From assembly GCA_000004985.1 (NCBI GenBank), contig GG738852.1: 64,000 bases of DNA; one strand, written 5' to 3'. This DNA comes from Naegleria gruberi. Lineage: Eukaryota. The position numbers and the translations under genes are program-made. The notes under the pieces are model-generated. The model was not told where the DNA came from. It did not search any database and worked only from the letters and a program-made list of their open reading frames with translations. Below are positions 6,570 to 29,167 of the stretch, one piece after another (position 1 is the stretch's first letter; each line of letters starts with the position of its first letter).

Positions 6570-7721
6570 ATGGGACAATATCAATCAACATTAATCACCT
6601 CTCATAACAAGTTTGCTTCTTCCTTGTTTCAATCAATTACCACCAAAAACAAGCAAACTAATATAATCTTCTCACCAATTTCCATTTATTTAACTGTATT
6701 GATGGCCACCGGTGGTTCTAATGGCCAAACATTGTCAGAGTTTGGCAAGGGTATTTTCCTTGATCAATCACCATCCACTGTTGAAGTGTTTAGACTCATT
6801 ATCGAACCATTTGCTTCCAATTTCTTTGATAATCTCAACACCTCAATCATCAATGTTGCTAACAATGTCTTTGTTGAGAGAAATGCCATTTTGAATGAAA
6901 ATTACAAGGAACATGTTCAAAAGGCCTTCCAAGTCAATGTTGAACAATGTGATTTTGCAGGAAATGCCAATGGTGAAGCTGTGAATATTAATCAATGGGT
7001 TTCTTCACATACCAATCAAAAGATTAATAATTTAATTCCACCTAATCACCTTAATTCTCTCACACGATTAGTTCTCGTCAATGCAGTTCATTTCCTTGGA
7101 AAATGGAAGGAAGTTTTCAACATTTCTAATAGTTATACGACCACATTCCATGGCGCTGGTGGTGACAGCACTTGTACTATCATGCAAAAAGAAAGAACCA
7201 AAGAACAATATGGTGCTGAAGGTCTCTATCATTGGGTCACCATGTCATTCAATGATGCCAAGTATAAGCTGACCATTGTTGCTGTCAAAGATAACTCACA
7301 TCAAACAACTTTCGATGATTGGTTCTCTAAGAAATTGAGTCAAGGATTCGAAAGTGGCTTCCCTACCAGAGAAACTCAAATGCACTCGTGTGGCTTCCCA
7401 AGATTTGAACTCGAACAAGGAATGGAATTGAATGAAATTTTACAAGCTTCTCCATTCAACATTCAAAAAGCATTTACAACTAATGCTGATTTCTCAAATT
7501 TGATCGTCAATGATCAAATTCATATCAATGCTGTCATTCATAAGGCCTATATTAAGGTGAATGAAAACGGTGCTGAGGCAGGAGCTGCTCTTAGTATGGA
7601 TTGTGCTACTTTTAGTATTGTGAAAAATCCAGAATTTCTGGTCACCTCACCATTTGCTTTCATCCTTACTGATGATTCTACCAAGTCAATTCTATTTGCT
7701 GGTAAGGTTAACACATTGTAA
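6570..7721 (+). CDS. Serpin (serine protease inhibitor), intracellular type; single exon, 383 aa
   Basis: Serpin fold signatures throughout: hinge-like ...NENGAEAGAALSMD..., C-terminal ...SPFAFILTDDSTKSILFAGKV. No N-terminal signal peptide. Confidence 0.85.
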   Translation: MGQYQSTLITSHNKFASSLFQSITTKNKQTNIIFSPISIYLTVLMATGGSNGQTLSEFGKGIFLDQSPSTVEVFRLIIEPFASNFFDNLNTSIINVANNVFVERNAILNENYKEHVQKAFQVNVEQCDFAGNANGEAVNINQWVSSHTNQKINNLIPPNHLNSLTRLVLVNAVHFLGKWKEVFNISNSYTTTFHGAGGDSTCTIMQKERTKEQYGAEGLYHWVTMSFNDAKYKLTIVAVKDNSHQTTFDDWFSKKLSQGFESGFPTRETQMHSCGFPRFELEQGMELNEILQASPFNIQKAFTTNADFSNLIVNDQIHINAVIHKAYIKVNENGAEAGAALSMDCATFSIVKNPEFLVTSPFAFILTDDSTKSILFAGKVNTL

Positions 7722-8427: not shown

Positions 8428-9137
8428 TTAGAGGAGAGTGAGCATATTTTCAGCAGTTGTCTTTTCCAATTGACCTGGAGAATCTTCAACGAACAATTCC
8501 TTAACTTTACCATTTTCAATAAGCATACTGAAACGCTTAGATCTCTTTCCCAAACCAGCGGCAGTCAAATCGACTTCAAGACCAACTTGTCTAGTGAATT
8601 CACCCAATGGATCAGCAATGAATTCAATTTCTTCATTACCAGAAGCAACCTTTTCCTTCCAGGCCTTCATGACAAAACTATCATTGACACTGAGGCAGAT
8701 AATCTTGGAAATACCCTTTTCCTTCAATGCTTTAGAATTGTTAAGGTAACTTGGAACGTGCTTGTTTGAACAGACTGGAGTGAAAGCACCCTATTATTAT
8801 ATAATTGTTGTGTGATGTAATAATAATGGATATATAATTAATTCCGATCATTCCGATCAATTAATTCCAAAAATATTAAAATTATTATAAAATTGTTATC
8901 AAACAAGAAGAATACATTAGTAAATTCTAACGAAATGATACTTACTGGGACACCAAAGACAATAACCTTTCCAGAAGTGAACAAATCATCAGTAGTAACA
9001 GCTTCATTGGTAACCTTGAAGAGTTTAACTGGAGTGGATGGCTTGACTTCAACATTGGTGTGGGCAGATCTGAATGAAACAACAGTTGATCCAATCAATG
9101 ATTGTTTTTTGAAGAGAGGAATGGTCTTACGGAGCAT
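8428..9137 (-). CDS. Peroxiredoxin, PRDX5/atypical 2-Cys (AhpC-TSA/redoxin) type, with an N-terminal presequence; 2 exons
   Basis: Model: join(9137..8946, 8790..8428). Exon 1 ends ...KVIVFGVP and exon 2 begins GAFTPVCS... (peroxidatic Cys motif GAFTPxC). Intron 8791..8945 (155 nt, very AT-rich, GTAAGT...AATAG). The N-terminus MLRKTIPLFKKQSLIGSTVVSFRSA looks like a mitochondrial presequence. Confidence 0.8.
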
Positions 9138-9355
9138 TTTGTTCTGATTTTTTTGAAACTTTAATATTAATAAATATTCAATCATGCAAATGTTTGGGAT
9201 TCTCAAGCCAATATTCATCTTGTCTTTTAGTTAAGAATCTTCAAAAATACGCACTCCTTAAACTCTCATTCATTGGTTAGATTGGTGAAGAGAATATTAA
9301 ATTGATTTTCAAATGAGTTAAATTTTATTAAAAACTACTAAGGATGTGAATCAAT

Positions 9356-12300
9356 TTACTTCTTAATGGTCACTTCACTGGCTGCACATGGAGAGAATTT
9401 AATGTAAACTTCACCCATGGCTGGAGTGGCAAGAGCAGAATCTTTCTTACTGCCAATTAATTTACCTTCCTTGGCTTTCCAATATTCAGCTTCTCTGAGG
9501 ATAAATCTTCTCTCACGTCCAATATTGTGTAAACGAAGGAGGTCTCCAACTTTGACTCTGAATTCACCCATATATTGATCTCTTGTCTTTTGATAGTCCA
9601 TACATTTGACAATTAAATAATCTTCATAATCAAAGATGTGAATAGTATGTGGTTCATGCCAATCAGGATTGACAGTTCTATTGACAATCTTGGTTCTAAC
9701 CTTTTGTTTCTTAGAACCCTTTCTGGTATTCTTTTCATTCAATTTAACTCTGAGGTAAGGATCTGCTGAGCCATGGTCAACCGGTAATAAATTTCTACCT
9801 CTGGAAACTTCCATTTTGAGACCTTCAGGTTTTGGTGCAATATATTTTGGAATGAGATTTACAATATTCTTTTCACCACATCCAACAATCTTCCATCCAC
9901 CCTTGTATAATTCAATGACACACATTGTTACAATAATGTCATTATCACTTTCATCAGCACTATCGTAACCATCCTCATTGACTTCATACTTTTCTTCCTT
10001 CTTAGTATACTTGTCAAGGAAAACACTTCCTGCAGTTTGAACACGAATAATTTCTTGACCTGTTCTCATGCCAACAACACGGCAGTAAACTTGTGAATTT
10101 TCATTGAGGACACTTCTTGATTTGACTTCAATATTTGCAACAATGTATTTGACATTGGAGCTTTCAACAAGATCACGAACACGAACGTCGAATTGTTCTT
10201 CATCATCTTGAGTATAGATGGTTAAAAAGTTAATTGGACGATGCTTGAGTTTGGCATCCATATCACTATATCCATCAAAGACTTTACCAATATATCTTCC
10301 AAAGTGATCATAGAGTTCAACTTCTGCATTGAGAATATGCTTCTGACCACCATTACCAACTACACCGAAACCAAGAACCAAATCTCTCTTATCCTTGACA
10401 AAGTCCTTTGAAACTGAAGTTGTTTCCTTTGCTGGAACTCTGAAAATATCATTAGATGGTTCACTGATATCAAATTGGCACTTTTGCAAGATGGATCTCA
10501 AATATTTACGAGCTGGTGATTGGAATTCTATGATTTCATCCAAAACTTCAATGAACCATTCGTCTCTTTGACCTCCACGATAAGCAATGACAGCCAAATT
10601 GGCATGTTGATGACAATTGAATACTTCCAAAGCATCTGTTGAACCATCAACATTGTAAACATTTCTCATTTTGGCAATACACATGTCAACCTTTTCGTCA
10701 ACATTCCACAATCTGAATGCATTGATTTGCTTTTCAGGAATGAGTGAATAATCCAAACCTTCCTCTTCTTCATTTCCAGAAATATCCTTGAATTTCAACA
10801 AGAAGCACATAAAGTATGGAGCATGAGGTTCCTTGCTATAGTTCAAATCAACACGGTGGAATGAGGACAAACTTTGCAACATTTGATCTTGTCTTGGAAG
10901 TTCATGTTCTTCATCCTCATCTTCTTCTTTGAGAACAAATGAACCAGTCATTTGAATATCACTGTTAGAGTCATTCTTTTTTGAAAGGGCAAGTTTTCTC
11001 TTTCTCAAATCATTTTCTTCATTGACCATGATTGGCTTAGCTCCTGTTAAGAGTTTACCATATTGTGAGAATTCTAACACTTGGAGAGCATCTAAGTTCT
11101 TTACAGTTGAAAAATCGAATCCAACAGTTCTGACTTCTTGCTTTGAGATACGGAAACAACGTGGTTTTTCTTTCTTTTCTTCTGACTTTTCTTCCACAAC
11201 AATCAAATCCAAGTCATCACCAACAGAAACAACTTCTTCAACATTTTCCTTCTTTTCTTGAGGCTTTTCAGCATCACTGGCCTTGTCTTGTTCTGCTAAC
11301 AACTTTTCTGCCTCTCTTTCACGTTCTTCTTCCTCAATTTCTGCCTGTGTTGTCAATTCAATACAAGGAGGTAAATCAATTGTGGTAACATAGGATTGAA
11401 TTTGAGCTTTCAACTTTGGATCGATAAGTGGATGGACACCATATGAATATTCGCCAATATTGCTAATCTTCCATTTGGTAAGTCCAATAAATGATCCAGA
11501 AGATACCATCGAGTTGATTTGATTCTTCTTTGAGGTAAAGTTAATTCCTGAAGATTCATTTGGATTTCTCAAACAAGTCAACTTGCAAGCAATGAAACTT
11601 TGGTGAGCCTTATCAGCAGTGTTCAATTGATATCTGTACAAGTCACCAACTGATGGAGTGGAAATCTTAACAAATGGATCTTTGAGTTCTTGGAAGCCAG
11701 AATCTTGAGCATTGGAAGAAGCAGTCACAACAACCATGATGGAGTGGACAGATTTTGGAAGACGACTCAAATCAATTTCTGCACACAAATCATTTTCCTT
11801 TCCAGACTCGAAGAGATTGTCCTTGTAGAATACAGCTGCAGGAGTTGGTTTGATGGCATGTGAAGAGGTTGACAAGTTATTACTTGAAGCTGTGTTAGAT
11901 GTGGCATTTCTAGGAGAATTGTTTCCAACACTTGGCTTATCGTTAGCAATTGATGAGCTTGAATTTCCAGCAGTAGAAGCTGTATTGGTATGATTTTCAA
12001 TTCTAGCAAGTGAGAGCTTTGGTGTGTATTGATCAATGTGACCAAGACGAGTTCCATATTTACCAAAGAATAGTACTGTAGTTGTTAAATAATATCTAGA
12101 GTATGATCTTCCTGAAAGGGCTTGCCATCCAATGAAAATCTTGACACGATCCTCATTGAAAGTGTAGCTCTTTTGCATGGAAATTTGTGATGCAATGGAT
12201 GGCTTTTCACTTTCCTTCTTTTCATTTTCATCGTAAGGATTTACATCCTTCTTGGCATTGATTTCTTGAAGGAGAGCTTCATCTTTCAAGGTTGGAATGA

Positions 12301-13654
12301 ATGGTGGTTTTTCAGCACTCACTTGAACAGATGACAAATATTTGTGAACCTCTTCAACAATCAATTGATCGATCAAAATCGATCCAGTCAATTCAGAATA
12401 GACACGAACAATATATTCTTCATCATCATCATGATCATCATCTTTGAGTAAATTAGCAATGGCCATATTTTCCTTATTCAAATTCTTCTTTTCCTCCTGA
12501 CGAAGGTGAATAATATAAGTTAAACGATTCTTCATGGAAATGAAAATATTCTCTGGCAATACATCCTTACACATGGCATACATGAAAGCATCAATAAATC
12601 TCTCATTGTGTCCAATATCTACTTGTTTTGAGACAATTTGCCAATAATAACTTGAATTTACACTTGCAGATGTTTCATCTTCTTGGGTAGTTTCATCATT
12701 TTCTTGTTCTGCTGGTTTCAAGTGACTGGAATTTCCAGGACTTTGTGAAATTGATGAATTATCCATAGCTGATCCTTCATCATCGTCATCATCCTTATTG
12801 GTATTCTCTTTTTCCTTTCCAGGTACCACAGATGTTGAAATAACTTCAGCATCTCCTCCTCTCAATTGAATAATTGCAAAAACTTGACCACTGACATCTC
12901 TTTGATTATCAAGTTTTGAAGAAATGGCAAGTTTCAATTCTTGATCATTAACATATTGATACAAATTACAACTAGCAAATGACAGTTCCGATAAAACTGT
13001 TCCAGCATAACAAGAAGCAAGGAAAACAATACAACGAACTTCTTGATCAACTTGTGAAAGATCCAATTCAATATATTCATTGCTATCAGAAATAGCTTTT
13101 TCAAGAGGAATTGTGTCATCTTTCAATTGTTCCTTCCTATTGTTGTTTTGATTAATATAGTTCAATTAGTTTTGTTATTATTTTAGAATAATAATATTGT
13201 AATTTGTTATATGAACATGTTAATATCTAAATAAACATAAGAAGAATACATACATTCTATTAGAATCTAGATTTTTAAATCCATTTCTATCATCACCACT
13301 ATGTTTTAATCCCTTCACTTGATCCAAGTTATTGAAAAAACAAACATCATGAATACCACCATATTTGTTTAAAAGAATGGCAACTAAATCAACATCGTGT
13401 GTTAGTGTAGATTTTGATTTCCATTGTAAAGTTGCTATAAATCGTGTATTAGAAATATTGGATGTGGCTAATGATGGACTTGTTGATGATTCCGTATTTT
13501 GTTGTGGATTGATTGGTGGTAAATTAAAGACAAAATTATGACTGTTTTTAAAGGGAAAAGTTGAGAATGTTGTAGGATTTGTTGTGCTGTGGGTGATGGA
13601 AAGAGGTGAATTTGGAGGTGAGAGAGCAGCAGCAAGTTTGGTTTTATTTAACAT
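9356..13654 (-). CDS. Large (about 1393 aa) protein with two N-terminal TerD-like domains and a C-terminal C2 domain; 2 exons
   Basis: Model: join(13654..13254, 13136..9356). Exon 1 contains a TerD-like segment (...THDVDLVAILLNKYGGIHDVCFFNNLDQVKGLKHSGDDRNG...). The intron is 117 nt (GTATGTA...AATAG) and the junction is in-frame (...DSNR|M KEQLKDD...). The large exon begins with a second TerD-like segment (...DQEVRCIVFLASCYAGT...VFAIIQLRGG...) and ends with a C2 domain (...GSADPYLRVKL...VNPDWHEPHTIHIFDYEDYLIVKCMD...). Total CDS is 4182 nt, divisible by 3. Confidence 0.6.
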
Positions 13655-14067
13655 TTTTTTATGATTGTTTATTGAAGAACGTTGATGGATGACATGACAA
13701 GTTTTTATCTACAGTTTGATTTTTCTTAAATCTTCTGATTGAAACTTTCCTTAAAACTTATTTCTCCCTAACAAACGTTTTTTCAAAATTATCATCACTT
13801 CAAGGTAACAACAACAATTTTCAAACTACAATTTTGGCGGTCAAATTCATTTCTTATTATTCGTTGAGCAAAAATCAAAAGAAGAGAGAACTGCTTTTGC
13901 TATCTATTTTCATAACTTGGAAAACTTTCAAAAAATTAAAAGAAAAAATTTAATGCTTCTTGTGTTGGATAACAGTGTTGCAGCGGTTCGATAGTAAGAA
14001 GAAGACTTGAACACAATTCTCTCTCTTGTTATCACTTACAACATTTAATTCTTTTTCTCTCTACAAA

Positions 14068-17000
14068 ATGCCTCCTAATCAAAGTAGTAGCAGCTCTAGT
14101 AACAGTCCCTATATGATACCTCCTCATTTAGCTACGCCCTCTCATCATCATGAAAGACATTCATCAGAGTATTCGGAAGAGTCAACCATTTTGACTACAC
14201 GAGGAGATAATCATTTTAGAAATAATTCTCAACCTGCATCATTTACTACAAATAATTTGGCATCTAGATCAAAATCTAATCCACCTGTAGGAACCAAAAT
14301 ATATGGACAAGGAATGCCAATACCTTTTGGAGTCCTTGATAGTTATACACCACCTCCTTTGAAATCTAGTAATAGTACTTCAAATGTAAATACAAAATCA
14401 CCATCCATCCCTCCTTCATCTCCATCAACAATAGGAAAAAACAAAAAAGAAGAAATACAAATTAATAATACATCGGAATGGTTTACATTGACAACACAGA
14501 ATCATGATTCTTTATTTCCTCTGGAAGGTCATCAAATTTTCTACTGGGAACAATGTTTGGAGGATGAAGATGATTTGACGAGTAGTGTTGAATCGACATC
14601 AATTTTCAATAGGTCACTCAACATGATTGTATTATTTGGAGGAACAGGTCCTATTCGTGGTAATACTAATCAAATATATTGTATGGTACAAAAACATTCG
14701 AGTATCAATTCAAAGCCAACTACTAATATTTCAAATTCTCAAAGTTGTTCACACCAATGGATTCCAGTCCCAAGTCATTATATTCCAAATTATTTTCCAC
14801 CTTCTCTCACTAGTGCCAGTAGTAATGATATTGAGAAATTAGAAAGAAAATCCTCCAAATCTAATATTTTGAGTAATTCTAACCAAGGTGCATCATCTCC
14901 AAGACGTTCATCATTCGAATTATCTTCAATTGCAGAGGATGGATCAACTGAAATACCACTCTACAAATCAAGATATGACCACTCATTAGTATTATGTGGA
15001 AATAATAAGGCTTACCTGTTTGGTGGAAGAAATGGCATGTTCACCAAGACTCCACTTCAAGACTTTATTCTCTACTCTCTTGATATGGATATTTCCAATC
15101 AATTCACATGGGAGATGGCCCACATCCCACCAAAGAATGATAGAGACCCATCAATATTGAAACAATCTCAAAGAGGGTTGGACGATTTATACAACAGAGA
15201 GTCACCAATTCCAAGATATGGACATTCATGTTGTGCTGTAAATCAAAAACAATCGGTACTCCAACGATCTAATAGTACTAACACAGGAAGCTCTCAAGCT
15301 ATCATAGAATTGAATTCTGAATCTGATACACTCTCTGATTTATCTATTGGAGGTTTAAATAACAATTTTGAAAGCAATTCTTCAAGTGCCAGTACTGGGT
15401 CAACCAGATTTAACACTGATGGAGGTGTTGTTTTAGATTGTGCAATGCTTCTCTTTGGAGGAGTAGCATTCACAGATTATTCTGGCTCTAAAAAATGTAA
15501 AGAAACTAACGATTTTTGGATGTTTAATTGTAAGGAACGAAAATGGCTTTCTTATCCAAGCATTATTCAGAGATACTTTAAAAATTCTTCTAGCATTTTA
15601 CAATTCAAAACTGATGACAAGTATATGCAAGAAATTTCTCTCTCCTCTTCAGCAAGTGGAACAAGCTCTTCCAATAGCGAGAGTAGAAAACAAACCAAAA
15701 AACCAGCAAACAATAATATTATTTCAATCCACAGCTCATTCGTACCAGAGGCCAGGTATGGCCATCAGATGTGTGTTGTATCCAACTCGTTGATTTTCGT
15801 AATTGGTGGAGCGACACTAAATAAGGACGCCATGTACAAAGATGTTTGGGTTCTTTCGCTTAGTACTTTCGAATGGAGAAAGGTAAATTTGCTTCACAAT
15901 AAGAATAATGAACAGTTTATCAATAAGATACCTATTCGTTACGCTTCTCACGTAGTTGTTGGTAGAAGAATATTACTCTATGGAGGACAGTTATCATACA
16001 AAACTGGTGATTATCTGACAGAGCTTCTTTGTTTTGATACTGAAACCTATAGATTTTCAATAATTGAAAACAGTATTTCTCCAAAATTTGATACTGGCCT
16101 TGTAAAGGCAACTATGATTCTTTACGGAATTGATCTTTTAATTATTGGAGGTAAAAGAGGTGTTAGCTCATATAGATATAACGATAGTGTTCAGGCATTC
16201 TCTTTCAAATTGCATTCCATATCCAAAACTAATCAAAAATTTATTAGAGAAAACACTAAAATGAAAAAATCTAATCAAATTCTGACTCCTAACGAAATTA
16301 CATTTGAGATACCTACATTTGGAGATGAAGATGATGAGTTTGATATTGCTAATTCTGTTAAAATTGATTTAATATCTCAAATTCTATTAAGTGAAATGTC
16401 AAGCAGTGATTTCTCAAGAAAAGAGGCTCTTAAATACCTTTCAGAAGTGAAGCAAATAGATATTGTAAAACAATTATTTAGAAACAATTCCATTCACAAA
16501 GCTCTATCGATAATTATGCAATCGGGATCCAAGTCTGATATCAGACAGACTGCCAAAGTTTTAATCAGATACTTTAAAGATACTGACCAAGGTACACTAC
16601 CATTTATCATTGCTCGACAAGTACTAAAATTCATTGAAAGCTATTTGACCTTGATTAACACCCTTATCAAACTTCGAGAACCAATCAGCCAAACATTACA
16701 TTTAGATTATCTTAATTTATTCCACTTAATGTGTCAAAATTTTGAATATTATGAATCTCTATCAAAGGAGCTCATTTCAGTGTTTCAACAATGTTTCAAG
16801 TTGAGTGATCCATTATCAAAGGCATCCCTAGATATTTTACAACTAGCCGTTTCATCTGTTGAGTTCTTATCACTTAATGCAATGCATTTCGCATCAAAGT
16901 GTGATAAGGAAACAAGTATAATATTTAGAGATTTTATAACTCTTTGCAACGAGGCTAAATCCAAGACAGCTAAAAACTTGGAAGATAATCCAATAGAAAT

Positions 17001-17142
17001 GCAAGGATCTATCCTTAAGCTTGATGAATTGGTAAACAAACTTCGCCAATCCCTCTTCAGACTTTCATCAAGAAGCAAACCAATCAAAAAATACCTTGGA
17101 AAATTACTGAAACGAAGTGAAGAAGATGATGATGATATGTAA
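14068..17142 (+). CDS. Kelch-repeat protein with an alpha-helical (ARM/HEAT-like) C-terminal region; single exon, about 1024 aa
   Basis: Repeated Kelch signatures (...SRYDHSLVLCGNNKAYLFGGRNG..., PRYGHSCCAV, ARYGHQMCVVSNSLIFVIGGA...WVLSLSTFEWRKV, RYASHVVVGRRILLYGGQ). First ATG at 14068 (MPPNQSS...); S/N/T-rich N-terminus. Confidence 0.75.
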   Translation: MPPNQSSSSSSNSPYMIPPHLATPSHHHERHSSEYSEESTILTTRGDNHFRNNSQPASFTTNNLASRSKSNPPVGTKIYGQGMPIPFGVLDSYTPPPLKSSNSTSNVNTKSPSIPPSSPSTIGKNKKEEIQINNTSEWFTLTTQNHDSLFPLEGHQIFYWEQCLEDEDDLTSSVESTSIFNRSLNMIVLFGGTGPIRGNTNQIYCMVQKHSSINSKPTTNISNSQSCSHQWIPVPSHYIPNYFPPSLTSASSNDIEKLERKSSKSNILSNSNQGASSPRRSSFELSSIAEDGSTEIPLYKSRYDHSLVLCGNNKAYLFGGRNGMFTKTPLQDFILYSLDMDISNQFTWEMAHIPPKNDRDPSILKQSQRGLDDLYNRESPIPRYGHSCCAVNQKQSVLQRSNSTNTGSSQAIIELNSESDTLSDLSIGGLNNNFESNSSSASTGSTRFNTDGGVVLDCAMLLFGGVAFTDYSGSKKCKETNDFWMFNCKERKWLSYPSIIQRYFKNSSSILQFKTDDKYMQEISLSSSASGTSSSNSESRKQTKKPANNNIISIHSSFVPEARYGHQMCVVSNSLIFVIGGATLNKDAMYKDVWVLSLSTFEWRKVNLLHNKNNEQFINKIPIRYASHVVVGRRILLYGGQLSYKTGDYLTELLCFDTETYRFSIIENSISPKFDTGLVKATMILYGIDLLIIGGKRGVSSYRYNDSVQAFSFKLHSISKTNQKFIRENTKMKKSNQILTPNEITFEIPTFGDEDDEFDIANSVKIDLISQILLSEMSSSDFSRKEALKYLSEVKQIDIVKQLFRNNSIHKALSIIMQSGSKSDIRQTAKVLIRYFKDTDQGTLPFIIARQVLKFIESYLTLINTLIKLREPISQTLHLDYLNLFHLMCQNFEYYESLSKELISVFQQCFKLSDPLSKASLDILQLAVSSVEFLSLNAMHFASKCDKETSIIFRDFITLCNEAKSKTAKNLEDNPIEMQGSILKLDELVNKLRQSLFRLSSRSKPIKKYLGKLLKRSEEDDDDM

Positions 17143-23922: not shown

Positions 23923-25050
23923 TTATTGGTCAATTTCCTTTAAAATCTTATCAATTTGTTGTGTTTCAGAGGAGGCATCACCGAGTAAGTCATCTTCATC
24001 GTCATTATTTTCATTATCGCTCATTTCTCCAAATTCATCATCTGAGGAAAATTCTTTCAGATCACTTGTCTTTTCACTTGGGGAAATAAGCTCCTCATCT
24101 ACAAGTCCCAATTTCTTCTTTCTATATTCTTCTAATTTCTTCATTTCTGCTTTGGTTAACTCTTTAATCTTGGTCAATTTTTCTTTCACTTCACTTGACA
24201 TTTCACTCTCCTCACAAAAGAAATTTTCAAAAATGATATGTCTGAAACATTGTAACAGAATCATCTTATCTTGTGAAATTTCTTGTGTCAGCAAGTTTTT
24301 GATTAATGATTTCGATCTCATTTCCTCACCTTCTTCATCATTGTCATCTCTCTTATCCTTTTCAATACCCATAACTTTGAGAAGTGATTTTACCTTTTCA
24401 GAGGCACCTACAATAATTTCACCTTTTTGTCTTCTCTCAGCAAGTACCTTTTCCTTTTCAATAATATGCTTTTTAGTTGGAAAGTTCTTTCTACGTTCCT
24501 CTCTATACTTTTCAATATCCTCTGGTGTTTCCATTGGTTTTTTGTAAAGCATTGAAAAGATTGGATTCTTGTAATTCTTTTTGTAATCTTGCAAAAATTT
24601 GATATATTCAGGAATATTTTCCTCATTCAAATCACCCTTATTTCCATCCTGTGAATCATGTTCATTATTTTCTGAAGAGGAGGAAGAGGCAGTTGCAACT
24701 TCATTTTCAATTTTTGGTTCCTTTGACTTGTTTTCCTCAGAATCATCCTCTGCAACCACTTCAGAAGCGTCTCTTTTTCTGTAATTATCTCTTGGTTTAT
24801 AGTGCCCTCCACGTCCTCCTCCGTGATGATGATGATTATTTCCTCTGTAGTGTCCTCCTCTTCCATTGCCTCTGTATGAATGACCACCTCCACGTCCACC
24901 ACCACCTCGAGCTAAACCTCCTCTTCCTGCACTATACATTGCTTGTAACCATGCTTGAGGATGTACCTTTTTTCCTTCCGAAGAAGCATTGCTTGATGAT
25001 GCTGATTCGGATGTCGTCTTGTTTGTTGAATTTGGTTTTTGTTCACTCAT
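23923..25050 (-). CDS. RGG-box / acidic nuclear protein; possibly NUFIP1/Rsa1-like box C/D snoRNP assembly factor (weak call), 375 aa
   Basis: ATG at 25050. N-terminal RGG/GGR repeats with His run (GGRGGGHSYRGNGRGGHYRGNNHHHHGGGRGGHY), motif ...EDIEKYREERRKNFPTKK..., acidic Ser-rich C-terminus. The NUFIP assignment rests on motif memory only. Confidence 0.55.
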   Translation of the reverse strand: MSEQKPNSTNKTTSESASSSNASSEGKKVHPQAWLQAMYSAGRGGLARGGGGRGGGHSYRGNGRGGHYRGNNHHHHGGGRGGHYKPRDNYRKRDASEVVAEDDSEENKSKEPKIENEVATASSSSSENNEHDSQDGNKGDLNEENIPEYIKFLQDYKKNYKNPIFSMLYKKPMETPEDIEKYREERRKNFPTKKHIIEKEKVLAERRQKGEIIVGASEKVKSLLKVMGIEKDKRDDNDEEGEEMRSKSLIKNLLTQEISQDKMILLQCFRHIIFENFFCEESEMSSEVKEKLTKIKELTKAEMKKLEEYRKKKLGLVDEELISPSEKTSDLKEFSSDDEFGEMSDNENNDDEDDLLGDASSETQQIDKILKEIDQ

Positions 25051-25150: not shown

Positions 25151-28100
25151 TTAGTACAACTTAGAGAATAAACCCTTTTTAACAGGTATTCTATTATTAT
25201 TACTTGCTGATCCAGGTGTTTGAGAACTCATTGGTCTTGCCTTTTGGATAGGACTGGGGGTGTCTCTACTGAAAGAGATGTTATCAAGTGGTGAGGCTGT
25301 CAATGAGGATGTGTTTAATCCAGGTGATCTTGGTGACATTACTGGTATTCCGTCAACCAAAGACTTGCTCATATCCATGCTTGAACTAGATACATTCATT
25401 GGTCCAGCAGAGAATACACCGGTAATCTTTTGTTTGAGTTTTTGAAGTTGGTATTCATACTCTTCTTGTTCCTTCTTATTAACAAGATAATCTTGTTGCA
25501 ATTGAGCTTTTTGTTCCAGTTTGGTATTTTGGAATTTCTTGTTCAAATCCTCCGATTCGATTTGAAGTTGTCTTTCCATTTCCCACATTTGTCTTTCGTA
25601 TTCTAAACGCTTAGATCTTTCCTTCTTTTCATTATCAACTTCTCTCCATATTTCTCTCGATTTTTCATTTCTAATCTTTTGAAGCAATGTCTTTCTAATT
25701 TCTTCTCTTCTCTTTTCCTTATCAACCTCCCATTGCAAGTGAGCTTGCTTTTCGATGACTTGAACCTCTTCTTCTTGCTTCTTTTGGAGGAGTTTTCTCT
25801 TTTGTTGCTCCAAATACTCTTTTTTACATTGGATCATATCATCTTTTTCTGCTCTTATCAATGCCTTTCTAGCAATTGCTTTCTTTTCTCTATCATACAT
25901 TAAGACAGCCTTCTTGAGATGTTGTTGTTGCTTGACTTTTTCAGATTCTTCAACCTTTCTGAGCTTTTGCTTCTCCAGCTCCTTCTTAAAGAGTTTTTGT
26001 TGCTCTTCCCTTAAAATTTCTTGCATAATACTTTCCCATTGTTTCTTTTCCCAATCAAGTCTCTCTTGCTCTAACTTGATACGAGCAGTTTCTGCTACTC
26101 GGAGAAGATCTTGATCCTTTTGTTGCTTGGATTTTTTCTCAAGATCGAGTTTTTCAACAGCAGATTGTTTTCTCTTTTCTGCTTCAAGTTCAACTCTTTC
26201 CTTTTCTCTTCTTCTTGCCTCCATTTGTTCCCTTCTTTCTTGGATACGTTGTTGTTTCTCAACTGCCAATCTTTGATTTTCTCGTTCAATAAGACTGGCC
26301 TTTCTTCTCTCGAGCTCTTCTTTGAGGAGAGCCTTTCGTTCTTCCTCCATCTTGATACGTTCCTTTTCTTGTTGCTCCTTCTCTGCTCTTTCCTTTTCTA
26401 ATTTTTCTCTTTCAATTCTTTGGAGTTCAAGCATTCTTTCCTTTTGCTTGGCTTTAAGGATTTCGAGCTTTCTCTTTTCCAACTCCTTAGCTTCTCTCTT
26501 TTCTCTTTCAATCTTTTCTTGCTCCACACGAAGTTTTTCAATTCGTTCTCTTTCTTCTCTTTCTTTTTCTTCTCTTTCTCTTCGCTCTTTTTCCTCCTTT
26601 TCTCTCTTTTCTTGTTCTATCTTTTCTCTTTCCTTCTTGTCTTGCAAGATTCTCTCAAAGATTTCCTTATTCTTCTCGTATTCTTCCTTCTCTTTCTTAA
26701 TTCTAATCTGTTCTCTAATCTTTCTAGCGACACATCTTCCAAGGAAACCTCTGCCAACTCTTTGCATTTTTATAATGTACTTTTCAAGCTTTTTGTTTCT
26801 TGCTGATTCTAACATTTTGTAAGTATCCGACTTTAAAAATACCTTAGTCTTACCGACTTGGACCTTGTCCTTTCCAAGACTTAAAGAAGAAATAATCTTT
26901 TCTGATGAACTCTTAAAATCAGTACTGGATCCCTCTCCAATAATAACATTATACTTATTAAAGAAGAGTTCATGAGGAATTCTCACACTGTAACCTTCCT
27001 TTCTAATTCTAATAGTTTCCAAAACACCAGACGAGTTCAATTGTTTGACAACTTCTGCATTGCTGAACAATCCAGGTTTCTTAGCAGGGTGAGGTTTGAT
27101 GGTTCTGATCCAATGTGGAGAGGTACTATTAATCAAGTCTAGCAATTCGATCAATTGCTTCTTGAAAGATCCAGTTACGGTAGATGGTTTCTTGTCCTTC
27201 TTATTGGAAGTGAAATCCTTCTTTTCTGGACAAATAGTCTTTGCAACAAACTCAATCTTACTTTGACTAATGATATCAATAATGTCATCTCTCAAAATAT
27301 CCTTATTTTTTTCAATCCAATCCTTAATATTATATTTAACTTCTCCAGCATAGTGCTTGACTGCGAATTCTTCTTTCCACAATGGTGCATGAATAAAGTA
27401 CTCGTGTGATTTGTAAGTTTGAGTAATCATTTCAAAAAATTTCTGATCTGTTGCTGACTGAAGTGCACTTTGGTCGTCAAGTACCTTCAAAATACCAGAC
27501 TTTGAACCTTGAATCATATCGAGACAAGGTTGATTATCCTTAAAGGTGACTTCTGTGACATCGATTCCTTCATTTTCACATTCCTTCTTATCTCTTTTAA
27601 ATGTGTAAGAGTTGTAGTGAGCTTGAAGTGCTTCATTGGCAAAATTGATACAAAATTGTTCGAATGTGTTGAATTCAAACTTTTCAAACCCAAAGATATC
27701 CAACAAGCCAATAAAGCTGGTGTAATCATTAGAGTTGGTATTGTCGTTAATTTTTGCAACCAACCAATCAAACATATTAGAATATAAATTTTTGGATAAG
27801 GCATCTCTCGAATCAGAGGCAGCTTCTGGGGTGAGTGGAGACTCGAAAATTTTAGCCATGACAGCATAAGTCTTGACTGTTAAGGCCTTCTTCAAAGCAG
27901 CAGGTTCAATTTGTAACAATGTACAAGCTTTCTTGAGAGGCTCATCATTTTCCAAGGTTGATCCAGTGTCTTCATTTGGAATTTTGACAAATTTGATATT
28001 TTGAAGATGTAAAATTGCAGCACACACTTTAAAAACAGTATCTCTAATCTCATCCTCAAACCCAATGACCTTAAAGGCGTTTACCATGGCATGAAAATCA

Positions 28101-29167
28101 GAAACATCGTCAATAGTGTCCACTTTGAAACAATTTCCTTTCATGATACTGTCATAATCTTGAGCTTTAGTTAAGAAGAGTTCCTTCTTTTTTGCTTCAT
28201 CCATACCAGCAAGCATTTGATAGAAAATGTGATATGATCTTTCATTAGGTCCCTGCTTCATTAAACGGGATTTTTCCAACAAGTCTATTTCCATGTTAAT
28301 TAATTGAATCCAAACCAAACTTACAGTTTTCTGTGACGGCACCCTTAATGATACCATGTGAGTCAAATTGAAGTTTAATAAATTTACCAAATCTAGAAGA
28401 GTTATCATTGTTCTTTGTTTTAGCGTTACCAAAAGCTTCTAGAATTGGAGAAGCTTGTTGAATTTTAGAACTCATCCCATCCGCCACACTCTTAACATTA
28501 GGATCGTTTGTCATTGTTGATGAAAGTTTACATAAATATTTGATAACAGATTTACAGGCCTCAGTTTTACCTATTAAATTTGATATTAAAAGTGATCAAA
28601 ATACTTAATGAAAAATTAAAACTTACCAGCACCACTTTCACCTGAAATTAGCAAGGTTTGATTTCCTTCCCCTCCTTTCATTGCTCTGTAGGCTCGGTCG
28701 GCAATTTGCCAACAATGTGGATTTAAGCCCTTCTTTCTCTCGACGTAATTAATCATGAATTCATCCTTACAGTATGGGATGGTCCACTTGAACGGATTGA
28801 GGGAGATGATAAGACCTCCAATAAATGTATAAATTTTGTCTTCCTTGAAACGGTTTTGAACACAATACAGCAATGATGATTCGTTAAGTTCAATCAAATC
28901 CAGCAAGTCATCATTCACTGCAGTTAATATATCTTCTTTGTACATGTTGAGATCACTTTCGGTAACCCAGGCATCTTCAACACCTTGCGATGAGCAAAGG
29001 TAAGGCGTTGGAATTTTGTTTGTTTGCTTCTTTTCATCAATATCCTTAATATTACCTATAACCCATGAGTGAACAGGATGATTAAATAAAACCTTAGCAC
29101 CCTTTTCCCAACTTGTGGATTTTGCAGCAGCAGGTTTTGCTACTAATGTTGAAGCCCTAGGTGGCAT
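25151..29167 (-). CDS. Unconventional myosin heavy chain (about 1306 aa): motor domain, one IQ-like motif, about 480-aa ER/K-rich single alpha-helix region, Ser/Thr-rich tail; 3 exons
   Basis: Model: join(29167..28627, 28570..28325, 28284..25151). P-loop GESGAG|KT is split by a 56-nt intron (28571..28626). Switch [12 protein letters not shown] is in exon 2. A 40-nt intron (28285..28324) splits ...VTEN|YLLEKSR. Switch [10 protein letters not shown] is in exon 3. Then an IQ motif ([22 protein letters not shown]) and a long [18 protein letters not shown]... tract. Total 3921 nt, divisible by 3. Confidence 0.8.

Follow-up and report, generated by a model that had tools for sequence, protein, structure and literature searches.

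Can a eukaryotic protein carry TerD-family domains together with a C2 domain, and if so, in what arrangement and for what function? This question is raised by a gene on the minus strand of a Naegleria gruberi contig (GG738852.1, assembly GCA_000004985.1), located at positions 9356-13654 of the 64,000-nucleotide stretch of DNA that was analyzed, here called the window. In the first-pass annotation, which was made from the letters of the sequence, the product was described as a giant protein with one TerD-like module in a short first exon, another at the start of the second exon, an acidic stretch of low complexity some 1000 residues long, and a bona fide C2 domain at the C-terminus. The combination of TerD with a genuine C-terminal C2 domain in one eukaryotic protein held up, while the number and the layout of the TerD modules did not. 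Instead of a TerD-TerD-linker-C2 layout, the protein (1393 amino acids, roughly 160 kDa) consists of three TerD domains, two other conserved modules and one C2 domain, in the order TerD domain 1 (split by an intron), helical module, TerD domain 2, module of unassigned fold, TerD domain 3, and C2. The features of the gene, numbered by position in the window, are as follows.

13254..13654, minus strand: exon 1, amino acids 1-133 and the first two bases of codon 134, with the ATG at 13654 and the GT donor at 13253; it encodes an S/T/N/P-rich N-terminus and then the N-terminal half of TerD domain 1
13137..13253, minus strand: spliceosomal intron of 117 nt, GTATGT...AATAG, phase 2, in a variable loop of TerD domain 1
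9356..13136, minus strand: exon 2, amino acids 134-1393, with the stop codon at 9356-9358
12818..13459, minus strand: TerD domain 1, amino acids ~66-240, with the intron inside
12263..12670, minus strand: predicted helical module, amino acids ~290-425, with many invariant columns in the family alignment
11393..12175, minus strand: TerD domain 2, amino acids ~455-715, with two lineage-specific S/T/N-rich insertions
10523..11155, minus strand: module of unassigned fold, amino acids ~795-1005, conserved in both clades of the family
9860..10396, minus strand: TerD domain 3, amino acids ~1048-1226, divergent, with an acidic insertion
9359..9820, minus strand: C2 domain, Pfam match at amino acids 1240-1334, with the last strands reaching to about amino acid 1385

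The minus strand carries two open reading frames (ORFs) in this region, one of 144 amino acids at 13220..13654 and, downstream of it, one of 1269 amino acids at 9356..13165. Joining 13654..13254 to 13136..9356 yields an in-frame coding sequence of 4182 nt, equal to 1393 amino acids; the two-exon gene with an intron at 13253..13137 was thus recovered exactly as it had first been proposed. The two TerD modules that had been placed in exon 1 and at the start of exon 2 turned out to be the two halves of one domain. A single Pfam TerD match (amino acids 61-193) covers profile positions 12-132 in order across the junction at amino acid 134, with positions 12 to about 90 held by exon 1, and in hhalign exon 1 covered TerD columns 22-90, with columns 91-143 covered by the beginning of exon 2. 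A single intron is present in the same variable loop of the annotated genes of N. lovaniensis (298 nt) and Willaertia magna (133 nt). In P0129, a member of a distant clade of the family (clade B, described below), the whole of TerD domain 1 is encoded in one uninterrupted ORF, with no intron there. TerD domain 1 is also split in another clade B contig (L001:1-210, SRR22388312), by an intron of the form GTATGT...TACTAAC...TAG, at a different site: it precedes the HSGDDR motif, and the Naegleria intron follows it.

Based on the single TerD match across the junction, the introns in the same loop of the orthologues, the uninterrupted domain in P0129 and the conserved synteny with a Kelch-repeat gene, the locus is best read as one real, intron-containing Naegleria gene. 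It could be argued that the ORF at 13220..13654 represents a small TerD-like gene in its own right and that the large ORF has a separate start, and two database models (P0002 and P0003) do lack a proper exon 1. Such an artefact is extremely improbable, since a complete TerD domain is found in neither ORF taken singly and the two jointly supply the profile positions in order, since these same parts are combined into one gene model by NCBI in three species, and since the homologous domain of P0129 is uninterrupted.

The check by Pfam that had been suggested for the spliced product gave matches to both families, TerD (PF02342) with 69.6 bits against a cut-off of 25.3 and C2 (PF00168) with 61.2 bits against a cut-off of 22. 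For a finer assignment, the family alignment was cut into segments, and each segment was compared by hhalign with a bacterial alignment built from 12 diverse TerD-family sequences of plasmid ter operons, including TerZ, TerD, TerE, TerX, both halves of TerA and a small Pseudomonas TerD protein. Reversed segments served as controls for the local hhalign runs and 60 column shuffles as controls for the global score; all reversed controls remained at or below 1.3% local probability. The C2 segment gave 0.1% and a z of 1.8 against bacterial TerD. When used as a query, an E. coli TerD sequence retrieved nothing but enterobacterial proteins almost identical to it, which were unusable as a profile. 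Comparison of the protein's own segments with one another by hhalign gave no signal, even between the Pfam-positive TerD domains 1 and 2, the alignments being too shallow for this comparison to have power.

These comparisons point to three TerD-family domains. TerD domain 1 scored 40.1 bits in Pfam when amino acids 1-260 were searched alone (gathering threshold 25.3), matched the TerD structure 3ibz in the PDB by phmmer with an E of 0.0025, and reached 97-98% in hhalign against the bacterial alignment (P 6e-11 to 3e-14), with a z of 39.8 against shuffles. It keeps the motif GDDRNG, which is followed by an insertion of ~25 residues that hosts the intron and then by SNE, so that the bacterial EGDGDDE stretch is replaced. 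TerD domain 2 scored 32.1 bits alone and, with an insert cut out for the local run, gave 94.8% in hhalign (P 5e-8, TerD columns 22-186); its global score was beaten by 1 of the 60 column shuffles. In this domain the acidic motif is reduced to scattered acidic residues, and the stretch KDNLFESGKEND is present. TerD domain 3 is divergent, and Pfam gave sub-threshold scores of 11.4-11.8 bits for it alone. With its acidic insert cut out for the local run, it likewise gave 94.8% (P 5e-8), over columns 92-181, and the global alignment spanned 146 columns with a z of 12.9 against shuffles. Its motif remnant is TQDDEEQ, and a PDB profile search with amino acids 1045-1228 returned only a non-significant PI3K fragment (E 0.1). 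The β-sandwich fold of TerD was found in the low-confidence structure models, which covered regions beyond domain 1. The bacterial TerA N-terminal domain and the small Pseudomonas TerD protein likewise lack the full acidic motif; since some bacterial members of the family are without it, the motif defines Ca2+ binding rather than membership in the family.

The region between TerD domain 1 and the C2 domain is therefore different from the acidic, low-complexity linker that had been described. Only 163 of the 996 residues (16%) of amino acids 240-1235 fall in low-entropy windows, and D+E make up 16.7% of the region vs 12.0% for K+R. When the region is divided into blocks of 50 residues, most of the blocks share 50-70% identity with the Willaertia orthologue and 20-38% with the distant clade, and low complexity is confined to a few lineage-specific insertions (amino acids ~250-290, 505-565, 730-790, and 855-885). 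Besides the two further TerD domains, the region contains the two other conserved modules. The one at amino acids ~290-425 has no Pfam match; helices are predicted in it with a low predicted local distance difference test score (pLDDT), and it showed no hhalign similarity to bacterial TerD (0.1%, z 1.6) or to C2. The module at amino acids 795-1005 was tried as a fourth TerD domain because of its likeness by eye, and this assignment was rejected: Pfam matched none of six members, hhalign gave 0.1-0.2% with or without an insert, the global score lay below that of the shuffles (z -0.9), and a PDB profile search returned only spurious matches to a repeated short motif resembling leucine-rich repeats.

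At the other end of the protein, the C2 domain that had been called bona fide proved to be so. The Pfam score rose from the 61.2 bits of the whole protein to 65.4 bits on amino acids 1225-1393. The best solved structures in the profile search were synaptotagmin-7 (2.5e-12) and the C2 domain of PKCα (6.6e-11), with many other solved C2 domains matched, and the domain can thus be assigned to the PKCα/synaptotagmin type. The β3-β4 region is strongly basic, with the polybasic stretch KNTRKGSKKQKVRTK, and its basicity is kept in clade B. When the domain is mapped onto the canonical Ca2+ ligands of PKCα, D1254, D1259 and D1314 occupy three of the five positions. The fourth position is Q1316 (E in the orthologues), and the fifth is Q1321, with D1320 one residue earlier. 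Across the Naegleria/Willaertia clade, the residues D1254, D1259, D1314 and D1320 do not vary. Neither a signal peptide nor a transmembrane segment was found in the protein, the maximum 19-residue hydropathy being 1.59 with its peak within a TerD strand, and the protein is predicted to be soluble.

Where else does this architecture occur? When 5.8 billion protein clusters were covered by a word-indexed search, five relatives were found: N. lovaniensis C9374_011244 with 65% identity, proteins from three further assemblies with 63-66% identity, one of them grouped with N. fowleri FDP41_005727 ("C2 domain-containing protein"), and W. magna ABK040_000967 with 48% identity. The protein encoded in the window was itself absent from this collection. 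A dictyostelid origin was rejected, as the best matches were to Naegleria and Willaertia. Within this Naegleria/Willaertia clade (clade A), identities range from 48 to 68%. An exhaustive phmmer search with amino acids 135-1234 against 1.84 billion representative proteins yielded no more than four proteins at E <= 0.001. Among these, P0007 is collinear with the Naegleria protein at 29% identity, has TerD and C2 matches in Pfam, and led to two further proteins, P0129 and P0130, which are 46-51% identical to it. These proteins of clade B derive from Joint Genome Institute (JGI) metagenomes and SRA assemblies, the samples with clade B organisms being JGI 3300062347 and 3300057222 together with SRR22388312, SRR29605903 and SRR29605815. 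Their contigs are AT-rich (36-41% G+C), have RCC1, DnaJ, WD40 and aldehyde dehydrogenase genes as neighbours and contain one spliceosomal intron, features that mark the clade as eukaryotic. A metagenome scan with clade A patterns gave no match, and a second metagenome scan gave one partial family member (L014) and generic TerD loci. The family thus appears to be small and composed of heteroloboseans and a second eukaryotic clade known from metagenomes. The identities within clade A and the collinear 29% to clade B indicate selection along the whole length of the protein. In the search of 1.84 billion proteins no bacterial TerD was found at E <= 0.001, which excludes a recent transfer.

What the protein does can be approached from these parts. 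We propose that it is a Ca2+-modulated peripheral membrane scaffold built from TerD domains and a C2 domain, a reading to which we give about even chances. The protein would be cytosolic and would be docked by its C2 domain, through the conserved polybasic β3-β4 region, on acidic membranes rich in phosphatidylserine or phosphoinositides. In the Naegleria/Willaertia clade, docking would probably be aided by Ca2+ bound at the partly intact C2 site, with its three of five canonical Asp residues. The TerD array and the two other modules would then form the effector or sensor part, which may weakly bind Ca2+ or another small ligand, or may bind partner proteins. In both clades GDDR.G persists in domain 1, as does D(D/x)EQ in domain 3, and one solved TerD structure (2kxt) was labelled as Ca2+-binding in its title by the depositors. 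The Ca2+- and membrane-linked function that had been put forward earlier is plausible for the C2 domain and weak for the TerD domains.

Several points weigh against the proposed reading. The full bacterial Ca2+ motif, GDN(R/L)TG(E/A)GDGDDE, is kept in none of the three TerD domains, which is why a role of Ca2+ is weak for them. Two canonical Asp residues are missing from the C2 domain, and the C2 domains of clade B are more degenerate, with LNPY and no loop-1 Asp in P0007; the further loss of Asp residues in clade B suggests that Ca2+ dependence is not a property of the whole family. Both structure models are of low confidence (pLDDT 45.5 and 47.2). The literature search on TerD with C2, Naegleria and the locus tags of the orthologues, which gave no relevant publication, did not extend to the main comparative work on Ter systems.

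The same observations could be explained by a Ca2+-independent scaffold, in which the polybasic patch binds acidic membranes constitutively and the TerD domains, their metal binding lost, serve as structural or protein-interaction β-sandwiches. Besides the incomplete acidic motif of every TerD domain, this explanation can draw on the Q at the fourth C2 ligand position of the Naegleria protein and on the clade B C2 domains, which are without the loop-1 or the loop-3 Asp and yet keep the K-rich stretch. It accounts less well for the invariance of D1254, D1259, D1314 and D1320 in the Naegleria/Willaertia clade and for the motif fragments kept in domains 1 and 3 of both clades, which suggest that an acidic site was retained, and we regard it as possible but rather unlikely. 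Signalling by nucleotides or cyclic nucleotides is a further idea, in which the TerD domains would bind a nucleotide-like ligand and the C2 domain would bring this activity to the membrane. CABP1 of Dictyostelium, which is reportedly cAMP-binding, would be a parallel. In two clade B contigs (L006:9991-12075 and L007:3694-5835), a class I cyclic-nucleotide phosphodiesterase gene (PDEase_I) directly follows the TerD-C2 gene on its downstream side and in the same orientation. In eukaryotes, though, the adjacency of two genes counts as weak evidence, and the two contigs may simply derive from related species; no phosphodiesterase neighbour is present at the Naegleria or Willaertia loci, and no nucleotide-binding motif was identified in the protein. 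We therefore consider a nucleotide-based function very unlikely.

Under the proposed reading of a Ca2+-modulated membrane scaffold, the protein can be set beside several known systems. With the bacterial TerD, TerZ, TerE and TerX proteins (PF02342; structures 2kxt, 2qz7 and 3ibz) it shares three domains that match by hidden Markov model or profile and the motif fragments GDDRNG and DDE. The bacterial proteins are single-domain proteins of ~190 amino acids with the complete motif GDN.TG.GDGDDE, encoded in ter operons beside TerA, TerB, TerC and vWA genes, whereas the Naegleria protein has three diverged copies within 1393 amino acids, an intron, large insertions and a C2 domain. The setting of a terZABCDE-type operon with TerB, TerC and vWA is absent here, the gene being a eukaryotic one with Kelch-repeat, Redoxin and serpin genes as neighbours. 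CABP1-type proteins of Dictyostelium are small eukaryotic cytosolic TerD proteins that lack a C2 domain. Compared by description only, they resemble the Naegleria protein in being TerD-based, eukaryotic and cytosolic, and differ from it in their small size and in having no C2; none of them was among the four matches of the exhaustive search, so they are not close relatives.

With the C2 domains of conventional PKC and synaptotagmin, the Naegleria domain has in common both Asp residues of loop 1, the first Asp of loop 3 and the basic β3-β4 region. It differs in its fourth ligand, which is Q (E in the orthologues), in its fifth position, which is Q with an Asp one residue earlier, and in its partners, which are TerD domains in place of a kinase, a second C2 or a transmembrane anchor. 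The likeness to copines/BONZAI, ferlins, extended synaptotagmins and MCTPs would be one of general logic only, namely several Ca2+-type β-sandwiches in one membrane-associated protein; in the Naegleria protein there is a single C2 domain, and the repeated unit is TerD, not C2. No vWA, SMP, DysF or FerI domain was matched in Pfam at E up to 10, and a transmembrane segment is likewise absent. On three bacterial plasmids (L002, L003 and L004), TerD-family genes were observed beside vWA-domain genes of the TerF/TerY-like kind. This proximity of TerD and vWA in bacteria suggests a possible parallel to the C2-vWA layout of the eukaryotic copines.

The surroundings of the gene were also recorded. The window has a G+C content of 34%, and 40,001 of its positions are real bases, the remainder (40002-64000, ~24 kb) being a run of N. 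Upstream and divergent lies a gene for a Kelch-repeat protein of 1038 amino acids with an S/N-rich N-terminus (14026-17142, plus strand), which is also found in N. lovaniensis (L012), so that local synteny is conserved. Just downstream there is an apparently intron-split gene for a Redoxin, or peroxiredoxin-like, protein (8428-9218, minus strand), and further on a full-length serpin gene (6570-7721, plus strand; Pfam Serpin, 246.6 bits). The purine skew, which is strong at 24-28 kb (AT skew about -0.3), is explained by a gene for a myosin heavy chain whose helical tail is very long and rich in E/K/R (25151-28432, minus strand), and beside this gene lies one for an R/G-rich acidic protein (23923-25050, minus strand).

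Is the protein new, then? Each of its domains belongs to a known family, and what is new is their combination. The earlier remark that the architecture had not been described is true of the literature as far as it was searched, and it is not true of the databases, where the orthologues of N. fowleri, N. lovaniensis and W. magna carry automatic TerD and C2 matches in Pfam under names such as "hypothetical protein" or "C2 domain-containing protein". In a bolder view, TerD, whose known occurrence is almost confined to bacterial stress operons, would have been tripled and joined to C2 within one limited group of amoeboid eukaryotes. The result would be a separate class of peripheral membrane proteins that sense Ca2+ or small ligands and that parallel, on a TerD basis, the copines, ferlins and extended synaptotagmins. 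The modules at amino acids ~290-425 and ~795-1005 would then be new folds or effector domains, and clade B might have a link to cyclic nucleotides through the adjacent phosphodiesterase; we think it unlikely that this view as a whole is correct.

The practical value of the finding is modest, as the domains are known, are already flagged by databases, and no phenotype is tied to the protein. For the biology of the organism, it adds a candidate Ca2+/membrane protein to Naegleria, with an orthologue in the pathogen N. fowleri and with no counterpart of the TerD-C2 protein in animals. For the TerD family, which is widespread in bacteria and whose molecular role is not yet clear, an array of TerD domains placed before a well-understood C2 domain would offer a different setting for asking what TerD binds.

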